Shown: positions 32,727 through 57,267, numbered from the stretch's first letter. The stretch is DNA of 64,000 nt from an uncultured Clostridia bacterium (GCA_963559365.1 CAUWKC010000001.1:57459-121458), one strand, 5' to 3'. The notes: generated from the sequence alone by a model not told the origin. Numbers and translations are program-made.

Positions 32727-34379
32727 ATGAAAATTACCTTTTTAGGAGCAACCAGAACTGTAACTGGGTCAAACTTTTTAGTAGAAGCTTGTGGAAAAAG
32801 ATTTTTAGTAGACTGTGGAATGTGGCAAGGAAAAGCAGAAATAGAAGAGCAAAATACAGAAGAATTTGAATACAATCCAGCTGACATTGACTTTATGCTA
32901 TTAACACATGCACACATAGATCATTCTGGAAGAATTCCAAAACTATATAACGAAGGTTTTAAAAATAGGATTTATGCACACAAAGCAACTTGTGATTTAT
33001 GTGCCTTAATGTTGCCAGATAGTGGACATATTCAAGAAATGGAAAATCAATGGAAAAATAAAAAAAGAAAAAGAAAAGGTGAAGAAGAAATTCCACCTAT
33101 GTATACAGCAGAAGAAGCAGCTAAATCTTTAGAACTTTTTGAAGCTGTACAATATGATGAAATAATTGAAATTACACCAGATATCCATGTTCGTTTTAAT
33201 GATGCAGGACATATGTTAGGATCTAGTATTATTGAGTTATGGACAAAAGAAGATGGAAAAGAAACAAAAACAGTATTTACAGGAGATTTAGGAAATAACG
33301 ATATTCCACTATTAGATTCACCAACAATGATAGAAAGTACAGATTACTTAGTTATGGAATCTACTTATGGAAGTAGATTGCATTTAAGAAATGACGAAAA
33401 AGCAGAATTATTCTTAAACATTGTATCTGAAACATTAGACAATGGAGGAAGTGTAATAATCCCATCATTTGCAGTAGGAAGAACACAAGAAATATTGTAC
33501 GAAATAAACAAATTAAAAGAAGTAAAAGATGATGATGAATTCAGAAGAAAATACAAAACATTAATGAAATCAAACGTATATGTAGACAGTCCATTAGCAA
33601 TTTCAGCAACCGAAGTATTTAGAGACAATACCAACCTATTTGAAGAAGAAATACAAGAACAAATAATGAGAGGAGATAATCCACTAGAATTTCCAGGATT
33701 AAAATTCACCCAAACAGCAGATGAATCAAAAGCATTAAACGAAGACGAAACACCAAGCATTATTATATCTGCCAGTGGAATGTGTGAAGTAGGAAGAATA
33801 AAACACCATTTAAAACACAACCTATGGAATCCAAAATCAACAATATTATTTGTAGGATATCAAGCACCAGGAACATTAGGTTATAACATTGTAAATGGAG
33901 CCAAGACCGTAAAAATCTTTGGAGAAGAAATTGCCGTAAACGCTAGAATCGAATACATTGAAGGATATTCTGGACATGCAGACCAAGAAGGATTAATGAA
34001 CTTCATATATTCTTTTATAAATAAACCAAAACATATATTCTTAGTACATGGAGAAGCAGAATCCCAAAACATCTTCCAAGAAAAAATCCAAAGCGAAACA
34101 GGAATCAGTGTAACAATACCAGAATTTGGAGAAACATATAAAGTAAACGGAATTGAAAACACAATAGAAATGACACAAAAAATCGAAAGAAAAATCGTAA
34201 AAACACTAAGAACAGAAGTAATAAATCGACTAGAAAAATTAAAAGAAGAAATCAAAGACATGGAAATCTATGTAAAACAAGACATGGACAACACCAACCT
34301 AAAAGACGAAGACATATTCCGAATAAACGAAAAAATGAAAGACCTAGAAAAACAAATCATAAATATAATCGAAGGATGA
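32727..34379 (+). CDS. beta-CASP family MBL-fold RNA-processing nuclease (CPSF/Ysh1-like)
   Basis: HAHIDHSG, DAGHMLGS, ESTYG, SGHAD motifs. Confidence 0.7.
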   Translation: MKITFLGATRTVTGSNFLVEACGKRFLVDCGMWQGKAEIEEQNTEEFEYNPADIDFMLLTHAHIDHSGRIPKLYNEGFKNRIYAHKATCDLCALMLPDSGHIQEMENQWKNKKRKRKGEEEIPPMYTAEEAAKSLELFEAVQYDEIIEITPDIHVRFNDAGHMLGSSIIELWTKEDGKETKTVFTGDLGNNDIPLLDSPTMIESTDYLVMESTYGSRLHLRNDEKAELFLNIVSETLDNGGSVIIPSFAVGRTQEILYEINKLKEVKDDDEFRRKYKTLMKSNVYVDSPLAISATEVFRDNTNLFEEEIQEQIMRGDNPLEFPGLKFTQTADESKALNEDETPSIIISASGMCEVGRIKHHLKHNLWNPKSTILFVGYQAPGTLGYNIVNGAKTVKIFGEEIAVNARIEYIEGYSGHADQEGLMNFIYSFINKPKHIFLVHGEAESQNIFQEKIQSETGISVTIPEFGETYKVNGIENTIEMTQKIERKIVKTLRTEVINRLEKLKEEIKDMEIYVKQDMDNTNLKDEDIFRINEKMKDLEKQIINIIEG

Positions 34380-34408
34380 GACAGTAGGGACAGTTTCAAT
34401 TTGTCTCA
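34377..34408 (+). repeat. dispersed palindromic element family 1 (TGAGACAgTAGGGACAG..TTGTCTCA); its TGA is the stop codon of the nuclease gene
   Basis: Inverted repeat GAGACA/TGTCTC around a GGGACAG core. Confidence 0.7.
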
Positions 34409-34458
34409 CAAATCGAGTCAAAAAAAGTCGAAAAATGACATAAGCAAAGGAGAAAAGA

Positions 34459-54773: not shown

Positions 54774-54795
54774 AAAATATGGAAGGAGTGATAAA

Positions 54796-57237
54796 ATGAC
54801 TTATAAGTTTACAAATAGAGCTAAAAAAGCTATTGAATTAGCAAATGAGGTAGCAATAGAATTAGGGCATAATTACATTGGAACAGAACATATTTTATAT
54901 GGATTAGCTAAAGAAGGTAGTGGTGTAGCAGCAAAAGTATTGGGAAATCAAGAAGTAAAACCAGACGAAATTATTGATAAAATTGTAGAATTAATTGGAC
55001 AAGAAGCCCCAATTAGTGATACTTTTGGATTTACACCAAGAACAAAAAGAGTTATTGAAAATGCATTTATAGAGGCCAGAAAATTAGGATATAACTATAT
55101 AGGAACAGAACATATGTTAATTGGAATCTTAAGAGAAGGAGATTGTATTGGTGCTAGAATTTTATTAGAACTAAATGTAAATATACCTAAACTATATAAT
55201 GAAATGATTAAAATTATTAATGAAGGAGAAGACATATCAGGAGACGAAAAAAGCAATCATACATCAAATAGTAAAAAAGGAAGTTATAATCAAACCACTA
55301 CTTTAAACCAATTTGGAGAAGATTTAACTAAAAAAGCAATGGAAGGAAAATTAGATCCAATTATAGGAAGAAAAGAAGAAATCGAAAGAGTAATTCAAAT
55401 ATTATCAAGAAGAACCAAAAATAATCCTTGCTTAATAGGTGAACCAGGTGTTGGTAAAACAGCAGTTGTAGAAGGACTAGCACAAAAAATAGCCACAGGA
55501 GATGTACCAGAAATTCTAAAAGATAAAAGAGTAGTTAGCATTGATATATCTGGTATGGTAGCAGGTGCAAAATATAGAGGAGATTTTGAAGAAAGAATAA
55601 AAAAAGCTTTAGCTGAAGTAAAAAAAGCAGGAGATATCATATTATTTATTGATGAAATGCATACAATTGTAGGAGCAGGAGCTGCAGAAGGTGCAATCGA
55701 CGCAGCTAATATTTTAAAACCATTATTAGCAAGAGGAGAAATTCAGTTAGTTGGAGCAACAACTCTAAATGAATATCGAAAATATATTGAAAAAGATGCA
55801 GCTTTAGAAAGAAGATTTAGTCCAGTCACTGTAAATGAGCCAAGCGAAAAAGATACAATTAAAATTTTAAAAGGAATCAGAGATAAATATGAAGCACATC
55901 ATGGAGTAAAAATTTCAGATGAAGCAATTGAAGCAGCAGTAAGTATGTCAATACGTTATATTAATGACAGATTTTTACCAGACAAAGCCATTGACTTAAT
56001 TGACGAAGCGGCATCAAGAGCAAAATTAAAAACATATACAGAGCCAGATAACTTAAAAGAACTAGAAGAACAAATTGAAGAAACCAAAAAAGATAAAGAA
56101 GAAGCAGTAAAAACCCAAAAATTTGAAAAAGCAGCAACATTAAGAGACAAAGAAAAAGAGTTAAAAGCAACATATGAAGCTGAACAAAAAAAATGGAAAA
56201 ACAAAAACAATAAACAAGTAATAAATATAGCAGAAGAAAATATAGCAGAAGTAATCAGTAGTTGGACAGGAATTCCAGCAAAAAAAATAACAGAAGACGA
56301 AAATATCAGGCTAAAAAATTTAGAAAAAGCATTACATGAAAGAGTAATTGGTCAAAATGAAGCAGTAGAAGCAGTAGCAAAAGCAATAAGAAGAGGAAGA
56401 GTAGGACTAAAAGATCCCAAAAGACCAATAGGATCATTTCTATTTTTAGGACCAACTGGAGTAGGAAAAACAGAACTATCAAAAGCCTTAGCAGAAGCCC
56501 TATTTGGAGACGAAAATGCAATGATACGAGTTGACATGTCTGAATTTATGGAACCACATTCAGTCTCAAAATTAATTGGTTCTCCTCCAGGATATGTAGG
56601 ATTTGACGAAGGAGGACAATTAACTGAAAAAATAAGAAGAAAACCATACTCTGTAATCTTATTTGATGAAATAGAAAAAGCACATCCAGACGTAATGAAT
56701 ATGTTATTACAAATCTTAGAAGATGGAAGACTAACCGATAGTCAAGGAAGAACCGTCAACTTCAAAAACACAGTAGTAATCATGACATCAAACATAGGAG
56801 CCAGACTAATAACAGACAAAAAATCATTAGGATTCACACAAGAAACACAAGAGACAGAAGAAAACAACAAAAAAGAATACGAAGAAACAAAAAAAGAAGT
56901 AATGGAAGCATTAAAAAAAGAACTAAGACCAGAATTTATAAATCGTATTGACGAAATAATAGTATTCCATAAACTAACAGACAGCGAAATCAATCAAATA
57001 ATAGACATAATGCTAAAAGAAGTAGAAAACAGACTAAAAGCACAAAAAATACAAATAAAAATCGAACCAGAAGTAAAAGAACTAATAGCAAACCAAGGAA
57101 TAGACAAAAACTTTGGAGCCAGACCATTAAGAAGAACAATCCAAACCATATTAGAAGACAAATTAGCAGAACAAATATTAGATGGAAAACTAAAAAAAGG
57201 AGAAACAAAGCAAATAACAGTAGCAGATTTAAAGTGA
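54796..57237 (+). CDS. clpC: ATP-dependent Clp protease ATP-binding subunit ClpC
   Basis: Clp_N repeats, two AAA+ modules, UVR-like linker. Confidence 0.95.
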
Positions 57238-57267
57238 GACAATAGGGACAGTCCCAATTTGTCTCAC
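57234..57267 (+). repeat. family 1 palindromic element (GTGAGACAATAGGGACAGTCCCAATTTGTCTCAC) giving the clpC TGA stop, followed by 25-mer copy 57270-57294
   Basis: Sequence. Confidence 0.75.

Follow-up and report, generated by a model that had tools for sequence, protein, structure and literature searches.

A REP/REPIN-like hairpin family at gene ends in gut Clostridia and Atopobiaceae and its probable RAYT-like partner

In the closest described systems, the REP/BIME repeats of E. coli with their transposase TnpA-REP and the REPINs of Pseudomonas with their RAYT proteins, extragenic imperfect palindromes of 20-40 nt are often arranged as inverted doublets with co-varying arms. The copies occur at 3' gene ends, where they can end transcripts or touch stop codons, and the Y1 HUH transposase gene is itself flanked by the repeats and lies in a conserved synteny that fits vertical inheritance. 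E. coli TnpA-REP and IS608 TnpA act on single-stranded DNA, where they bind hairpins and cut and join next to them. To our knowledge, nearly all work on REP/REPIN-RAYT systems has been done in Proteobacteria. Gram-positives go unmentioned in Nunvar 2010, and Bertels 2017 reported RAYT group 1 from Clostridia and abundant repeats only with groups 2 and 3. Here we describe a repeated hairpin element, family 1, in a stretch of 64,000 nt from an uncultured Clostridia bacterium (GCA_963559365.1, CAUWKC010000001.1:57459-121458; hereafter the window, with positions counted from its first letter). We consider it likely that the element is a REP/REPIN family, that its spread is due to a RAYT-like partner, and that the host has co-opted it as operon punctuation.

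The repeated hairpin is real and over-represented in the window. Family-1 units have the form TGAGACA-N3-GGGACRG-loop-TTGTCTCA, and the seven copies that an earlier note on this DNA had claimed can all be read from the sequence within 34377-57266, with fewer than one expected by chance. The pattern GAGACANNNGGGACRG, allowing up to two mismatches, matched eight times in the window against 0.88 expected, a count reached by none of 100 dinucleotide-preserving shuffles; the 17-mer TGAGACAATAGGGACAG, allowing up to three mismatches, matched seven times (0.15 expected), and the full hairpin TGAGACA-N10-30-TGTCTCA five times (0.00 expected). The copies are the following.

34377-34408, + strand: family-1 unit; its TGA is the stop of the RNase J-like open reading frame (ORF) 32727..34379
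34409-34440, + strand: A-rich, non-terminator tail directly 3' of unit 34377-34408
38215..38353, both strands: REPIN of two heads-out inverted family-1 units with a 75-nt spacer
38215-38246, + strand: family-1 unit, left arm of the REPIN, with a T-run behind the unit
38322-38353, - strand: family-1 unit, right arm of the REPIN, with GGGACAG and a T-run on the - strand
42883-42919, + strand: variant unit TGAGACAATAGGGACGG..TCCCTATTGTA; its TGA is the carB stop
44308-44338, - strand: family-1 unit of 31 nt, with GGGACAG on the - strand
52640-52676, - strand: variant/partial or decayed unit TGATACAGTAGGGACAG..TCCCTATTGTT, starting TGATACA
57235..57285, + strand: family-1 unit (57235-57266) with T-rich tail CTTTTTTGTCGAATTTTGC; its TGA is the clpC stop

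Single units in the window have predicted folding energies of -11 to -20 kcal/mol and z-scores from -1.3 (the 52640 copy) to -5.5, in agreement with the earlier description of each copy as a hairpin. The unit at 57235 folds at -20.4 kcal/mol (z = -5.5) and the 42883 variant, whose right arm pairs with CAATAGGGA and not with TGAGACAA, at -14.6 kcal/mol, and the doublet 38215-38353 taken as one long hairpin reaches -64.7 kcal/mol (z = -9.7). The T-run said to follow the copies often is present behind units 38215, 38322 (on the - strand) and 57235 and absent behind 34377 and 44308. An Rfam search of the window at gathering thresholds returned no RNA family over the units; its sole matches were two neighbouring tRNA genes at 14398-14563.

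The ends of GTAG REPs frequently give TAG stops to adjoining ORFs (Di Nocera et al. 2013, PMC3733652). Like those repeats, the palindromes described here overlap and provide ORF stops with their terminus; unlike them, the stop is TGA, taken from the head TGAGACA. ORFs 32727..34379, 39706..42885 (carB) and 54796..57237 (clpC) all terminate at the element's opening TGA, so that three of the four genes for which this had been claimed, namely the beta-CASP (RNase J-like) nuclease, carB and clpC, do end in this way. The fourth, an FGE-like gene, would require a frameshift: its ORF as read stops at 44216, before the element, and its conserved C-terminus (..GFRTVLYK) lies in a different frame, ending at TGA 44308-44310 on the + strand. 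This FGE-sulfatase-like gene (43422-44310) is interrupted by the frameshift near 44190-44216 and is either a pseudogene or affected by a sequencing error. The gap ORF (37217..38236) runs six codons into the left unit (GAG ACA AGT GGG ACA GTT) and stops at a TAA in the loop at 38234-38236, just as previously noted.

The dispersed element is present well beyond the window. A pattern with 22 specified bases, TGAGACANNNGGGACAG-N4-12-TTGTCTCA, searched with one genome per species, gave at least 114 eight-kb tiles (loci designated by L numbers), and the taxonomic range of carriers is a lower bound. About 35 of the carriers listed are low-GC (24-32%) metagenome-assembled genomes (MAGs) of uncultured gut bacteria named 'Clostridium sp./Clostridia bacterium', with Clostridium sp. 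CAG:343 and Clostridium sp. 28_17 among them. Another dozen or so are high-GC (64-72%) Atopobiaceae; the cultured ones include Olsenella uli An733, Olsenella sp. An270 and Thermophilibacter gallinarum DSM 107455. One carrier, a Solirubrobacteraceae MAG, has as its unit the perfect 15-1-15 palindrome TGAGACAAAAGGGAC-A-GTCCCTTTTGTCTCA. Several tiles hold orthologues of parts of the window, 66-92% identical in nucleotide sequence. Viral carriage is negligible (2 matches in 2.9 million viral contigs), and a full-text literature search for the motif strings brought up no bacterial match. One low-GC Clostridia MAG and Olsenella sp. An270 each have a relA/spoT-like gene that ends in a unit (L038 4002-4033, L056 4424-4454), which is probably a coincidence.

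Across these relatives, the unit is an imperfect palindrome of 31-32 nt with a basal stem of 8-9 bp (TGAGACAA/TTGTCTCA) and a GGGACAG motif in its apical part. TGAGACA, GGGACAG and TTGTCTCA are conserved, and the three bases behind the head and about six loop bases vary. In low-GC genomes the unit is followed by a tail of 20-25 nt that is usually T-rich and contains the words GTCGAA and TGTC about 10 nt apart. All 49 inverted doublets found have their heads out, with spacers of 41-95 nt in low-GC genomes and of 8-12 or about 40 nt in Atopobiaceae. The two arms within a doublet agree at 85% of the 11 variable positions, compared with 49% between doublets, and none of 5000 permutations gave a value as high. 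Partial or tandem duplicates of unit fragments were also seen beside complete units (L024 910-1170, L051 6227-6405, L031 3784-3803 and L077 6065-6084); the L024 stretch, which lies upstream of the RAYT-like gene described below, holds three degenerate CCTCAGGACGGTTTTTTCACTTGTCTCA repeats, and in L051 the flanks lengthen the palindrome.

Several other identities for the repeats were tried and rejected. The spacers of 41-95 bp are too short for an invertible promoter, and the copies are too dense and lie beside unrelated housekeeping genes; an integron attC site, a Xer/dif-like site and a transcription-factor operator misfit in both consensus and context; and a promoter within the spacer was dismissed, as TTGACA-like words are present with no -10 box at the proper distance. 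An autonomous element at L005 2268-3068 was likewise discarded: the region is a perfect palindrome of about 800 bp without a credible gene. Two units with identical tails enclose it, and it may be a MAG assembly artefact or a very long hairpin.

The earlier note had compared the family with the Correia (NEMIS) elements of Neisseria and the Rickettsia palindromic elements (RPEs), which it resembles in consisting of short dispersed palindromes near genes, able to affect transcript ends. Under this comparison, the element would be a miniature inverted-repeat transposable element (MITE) derived from a DDE-type insertion sequence (IS), not autonomous but mobilised in trans, with terminal inverted repeats and a preference for 3' gene ends. 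Indeed, the doublets look like a 120-160-bp element with terminal inverted repeats of about 32 bp, and copies are present or absent at orthologous junctions, as detailed below. In Correia elements a TA duplication accompanies terminal inverted repeats of the kind typical for MITEs mobilised by DDE enzymes, and RPEs insert in frame inside genes. In contrast, neither target duplication nor in-frame insertion inside genes was seen here: at the 49 doublets no target-site duplication was consistent, with a 2-nt duplication in 13 (7.2 expected) and a 3-nt duplication in 6 (3.1 expected). Single units are common and are themselves palindromes. Moreover, no DDE transposase was seen in the 114 loci, and the sole recurrent neighbour gene across phyla encodes a Y1 HUH transposase. 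Given this RAYT-like gene and the heads-out, co-varying doublets, the analogy does not hold, and we regard a DDE-type MITE as very improbable.

The transposase gene was found by listing genes with units on both sides, which gave a 246-aa ORF in L015, and by cross-phylum BLAST. Homologues of this ORF occur in 10 of the 114 tiles, with one gene-bearing 8-kb tile in each of 10 different genomes: L015, L033, L053, L111, L024, L114 and L050 are low-GC, and L016, L090 and L037 are Atopobiaceae. In all carriers but L016, the gene lies within about 250 nt of a family-1 unit. It has a unit on both sides in L015, L024 and L114 (some of these more than 100 nt away), one intact unit and at most a remnant on the other side in L033, L053 and L111, and an upstream unit in L090 and L037, where the tile ends before the far side. 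In L016, L119 and L120 the gene is flanked by palindromes that have the GGGAC core and other stems.

These ORFs score 31-45 bits to Pfam PF01797 (Y1_Tnp; cutoff 23), and 35 homologues all retain the HUH histidines (H60, H62) and the catalytic tyrosine (Y120), whose motif is YIHxNPV and not Y..Q. The database queries brought up 1256 and 2222 homologous clusters, and nearly all of the best 120 per query are about 245-260 aa long. The AlphaFold2 model (pLDDT 86.5) has as its top PDB match by Foldseek the E. coli TnpA-REP with its REP hairpin (4ER8_A, E = 2.9e-6), and the next structural matches are the IS608 and ISDra2 TnpA. Residues from about 150 to 246 make up an extra C-terminal helical domain of about 100 residues with weak similarity to HTH_7. 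The gene order recD2 - RAYT-like gene - comFC is kept among proteins that are only about 50% identical, suggesting that the gene behaves like a domesticated RAYT and not like an insertion sequence. In L115, L116, L117 and L118 (gene at 10001-10765, for instance) this neighbourhood lies downstream of the rpoA-rplQ cluster. The system shares with IS200/IS605 elements and palindrome-associated transposable elements (PATEs) the Y1 HUH fold and, by analogy, would share hairpin recognition without target-site duplication. Unlike in IS200/IS605, the gene is syntenic, with no tnpB and no IS-like ends, and the repeats form inverted doublets and not left-end and right-end hairpins on one strand.

The hairpins in the window vary in stem and share a tip. 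The heptamer GGGACNG occurs 15 times in the window (2.6 expected), and 13 of the 15 lie in hairpins, at the same place in each; hairpins with a GGGACRG core number 13 in the 64 kb. Around GGGACNG, three kinds of stem are found in the window: TGAGACAA (family 1), GGTCnTTTT and TTGAAGA. The GGTCnTTTT group is presumably the 'family 2' of the earlier note, and two of its three sites are doublets. The related sites are listed here.

46368..46454, both strands: family-2 REPIN, GGTCGTTTTGGGGACGGAGACAAAAACGACC and an inverted copy
50541..50575, + strand: family-2 single unit ATGGTCATTTTTGGGACGGAGAAGAAAATGACCAT, 12 nt past the stop of ORF 49528..50529
52153..52249, both strands: family-2 REPIN, GGTCTTTTTTGGGACGGAGAAGAAAAAGACC and an inverted copy
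4598..4639, + strand: decayed hairpin with a GGGACGG motif and the stem TTGAAGA/TCTTCAA, related, with the third stem

In the last of these, the left stem consists of the final codons and the TAG stop of ORF 3574..4608. Varied stems around a single loop motif amount to covariation, which points to recognition of a folded single strand; this fits a hairpin, not the double-stranded terminal-repeat recognition that a MITE would call for. The Atopobiaceae RAYT-like genes are likewise flanked by palindromes that have the same GGGAC(A/T)GTCCC centre and other stems (TGATACGAAGGGACTGTCCCTTCGTATCA, AACCTGCAAAAGGGACAGTCCCTTTTGCAGGTT, GACCCAAGTGGGGACAGG and others), suggesting that the constant feature of the repeats of this clade is the tip GGGAC(A/T)G(TCCC). 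In the reading that we favour, the apical GGGACAG motif was ancestrally the palindrome GGGAC-N-GTCCC.

The shared tip also bears on whether the repeats might be a DNA uptake signal, like the DNA uptake sequences of Neisseria, with inverted pairs acting as terminators downstream of genes. The stem is an inverted 8-9-mer with a T-run behind some copies, and the RAYT-like gene adjoins comFC. However, different stems carry one loop motif, the asymmetric loop motif GGGACAG is conserved as well and not the stem alone, and the copies, unlike uptake sequences, are nearly absent from coding DNA. We find an uptake signal hardly credible.

Comparison of orthologous gene ends, which the earlier note had proposed, revealed junctions that were empty, filled, or filled by another family member, indicating turnover. 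At the RNase J junction there is a 2-nt spacer in L109, a family-1 unit with its tail in the window, and a different, long GGGACGG palindrome in L006. The junction 4606/4631, whose upstream protein ends in ..DYFE(E/K) or ..DYFKK, has differing states in four species: in the window the gene ends with its own TAG within the decayed GGGACGG hairpin; in L063 (5580-5700) and L065 (6792-6922) the TGA of a family-1 REPIN is the stop; and in L097 (5542-6330) the gene's own TAA is followed by an extra inserted gene and then a REPIN. At the gap end, L059 and L109 have the left unit only, without the second arm. L098, L094 and L059 lack the ctsR-leader copy (52640) in their orthologous leaders; it is present in the window alone, where this REP remnant sits between the second CtsR operator and the ctsR ribosome-binding site. 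The operator-like direct repeats, (A/G)GTCAAAgaaaGTCAAA, are at 52558-52575 and 52621-52641 and flank a TATAAT box upstream of ctsR. In L035, two copies 711 nt apart are identical over unit and tail bar one base. Other copies persist: those at the clpC and gap ends are kept across species, with their variable positions drifted and their conserved positions retained. In L059, L098 and L091 the clpC ORF runs 6-7 codons into the unit, and the junction in the window is one base shorter, which brings the TGA into frame.

This mixture of turnover and retention is relevant to a purely host-encoded, non-mobile signal, such as a terminator, an RNA-processing hairpin or a protein-binding site, that selection keeps at the borders of genes and that spreads by ordinary duplication or convergence. 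Such a signal would accommodate conserved positions that are retained while the flanking genes diverge, a core conserved across phyla, a tail type that tracks context (see below), and a doublet that would make a 32-bp RNA duplex. It is at odds with orthologous junctions that are empty or hold a different family member, with near-identical copies at separate sites in one genome (L035), and with units flanking the RAYT-like gene in 10 genomes; moreover, the genes adjoining the copies have nothing in common. We judge a host signal of this kind to be unlikely, though less so than a MITE.

To describe position relative to genes, we scored 152 units, drawn from the window and the low-GC tiles, against genes called simply as long ORFs, which gives crude calls; the high-GC loci were too noisy and were left out. 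Only 14 of the 152 units lie inside called ORFs, in DNA that is 81% coding. Of the 82 units whose head side faces a gene end, 32 provide the stop with their head TGA, another 16 are read into, and 12 begin 0-6 nt past a stop, in line with the earlier claim that the element abuts gene ends and supplies stops. The tail end of a unit meets a stop only twice. The previously described preference is not for 3' ends alone: a further 19 heads are 10-30 nt away from a start codon, right up against a ribosome-binding site on the other strand. This pattern of positions may reflect survival in whatever short gaps a compact genome leaves rather than a choice of insertion site. With its heads touching both stops and ribosome-binding sites, a doublet fills the whole gap from a stop codon to the next ribosome-binding site. 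Stops in all three frames, a further property considered for the unit, turned out to hold only in part: frame 0 is always closed, the second frame in 43% of units and the third in 3%. Given these stop frames, the excess of exact TGA junctions (32 versus 16) suggests selection for the junction that disrupts least, or else compaction. In addition, a -10-like hexamer (TATAAT/TAGAAT) often stands about 6 nt upstream of the head (for example L029 4683-4702, L074 3352-3371 and L084 3408-3419), so that transcription may in some cases begin at the unit's first base.

Tail type was found to depend on context. When the next tandem gene begins within 135 nt, only 1 of the 20 units that follow a stop codon has a T-rich tail, compared with 23 of 36 when the following gene is convergent or lies beyond that distance (Fisher p = 1.3e-5). 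These context statistics support a terminator role, with the T-tailed copies behaving as intrinsic terminators at operon ends, and A-tailed copies such as 34377 lie inside operons. In the window, a hairpin with a direct sense-strand T-run is present at 38215 and 57235 and not at 34377 or 44308; a simple terminator scan also calls the 38215 REPIN terminator-like, and the 57235 unit is likely the intrinsic terminator of the ctsR-clpC operon. Together, these sequence-based data bear out the earlier suggestion that the element could act as a terminator, at least to the extent that T-tailed copies look like one. Many doublets pair one T-type tail with one A-type tail, suggesting that the orientation of the doublet decides which direction of transcription stops.

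We hypothesize the following mechanism. In single-stranded DNA the unit would fold into a hairpin that carries the apical GGGACAG tip on its basal stem. On grounds of homology, its spread would fall to a RAYT-like Y1 tyrosine transposase that has an extra HTH-like domain and is encoded by a single-copy gene passed on vertically: by analogy with TnpA-REP and IS608 TnpA, the enzyme would bind the hairpin in single-stranded DNA, cut and join beside it, and so spread REPINs. In a compact genome, the only places left for copies to survive would be the very short spacers between genes, which would leave the outer head flush with stop codons and ribosome-binding sites. The head TGA would then serve as the stop, or the ORF would run a few codons into the unit. 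The host would finally co-opt the copies as operon punctuation, with T-run copies terminating operons and copies with A-rich tails lying within them.

Several observations count against a REP/REPIN family with a RAYT-like partner. The GTAG/CGTC tag of the described REP superfamilies is not conserved; the head is TGAGACA, and GTAG arises only when N3 is GTA. The only and best NCBIfam match of the protein, REP_Tyr_transpos (NF047646), scores 67 bits, below the equivalog cutoff of 80. The 64-kb window has no RAYT-like gene, recD2 or comFC, so the presence of the gene in its genome is surmised from relatives. L115 and L117 have the gene and few or no family-1 units in 20 kb, indicating that the abundance of units does not simply track the gene. 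Finally, conserved positions are kept at orthologous sites while the flanking genes diverge to about 67-80% identity, which would fit a purely host-selected signal as well. We nevertheless prefer a mobile REP/REPIN family over its rivals. A bolder proposal we offer only tentatively, as one more likely to fail than to hold: that an HTH-bearing RAYT-like clade reads the tip GGGAC-N-GTCCC, constant across Bacillota and Actinomycetota in spite of proteins that are about 35% identical, and that its REPINs have been domesticated as orientation-dependent operon punctuation, acting as a terminator one way and allowing read-through the other, with stop codon and ribosome-binding-site contact at their ends.

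Set against the E. coli and Pseudomonas systems, the family described here differs in several respects. Its hosts are Clostridia, Atopobiaceae (Coriobacteriia) and Solirubrobacteraceae, not Proteobacteria; its protein has about 100 extra C-terminal residues and falls below the NCBIfam RAYT cutoff; its motif is the apical GGGAC(A/T)G(TCCC) and not a 5' GTAG or CGTC tag; and its low-GC copies have a tail of 20-25 nt with phased GTCGAA/TGTC motifs. Furthermore, one unit sequence recurs in different phyla, whose proteins share only 30-39% identity.

The logic of REP/REPIN-RAYT systems would thereby extend to uncultured, small-genome gut Clostridia and to cultivable Atopobiaceae (Olsenella, Thermophilibacter), with three departures from the systems studied so far: the recognition motif, the extra domain of the transposase, and the unusually deep conservation of the core across phyla. 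For annotation, many stop codons, short C-terminal extensions and intergenic regions in these MAGs consist of the repeat, and this should be taken into account wherever gene ends, operon boundaries or assembly breaks are interpreted. The most interesting point, in our view, is the deep conservation of the hairpin tip together with the apparent use of the cassette as operon punctuation. The family may offer a tractable system in which to ask how a domesticated single-strand transposase reads a hairpin, and whether such repeats serve their hosts as terminators and as signals of gene boundaries.

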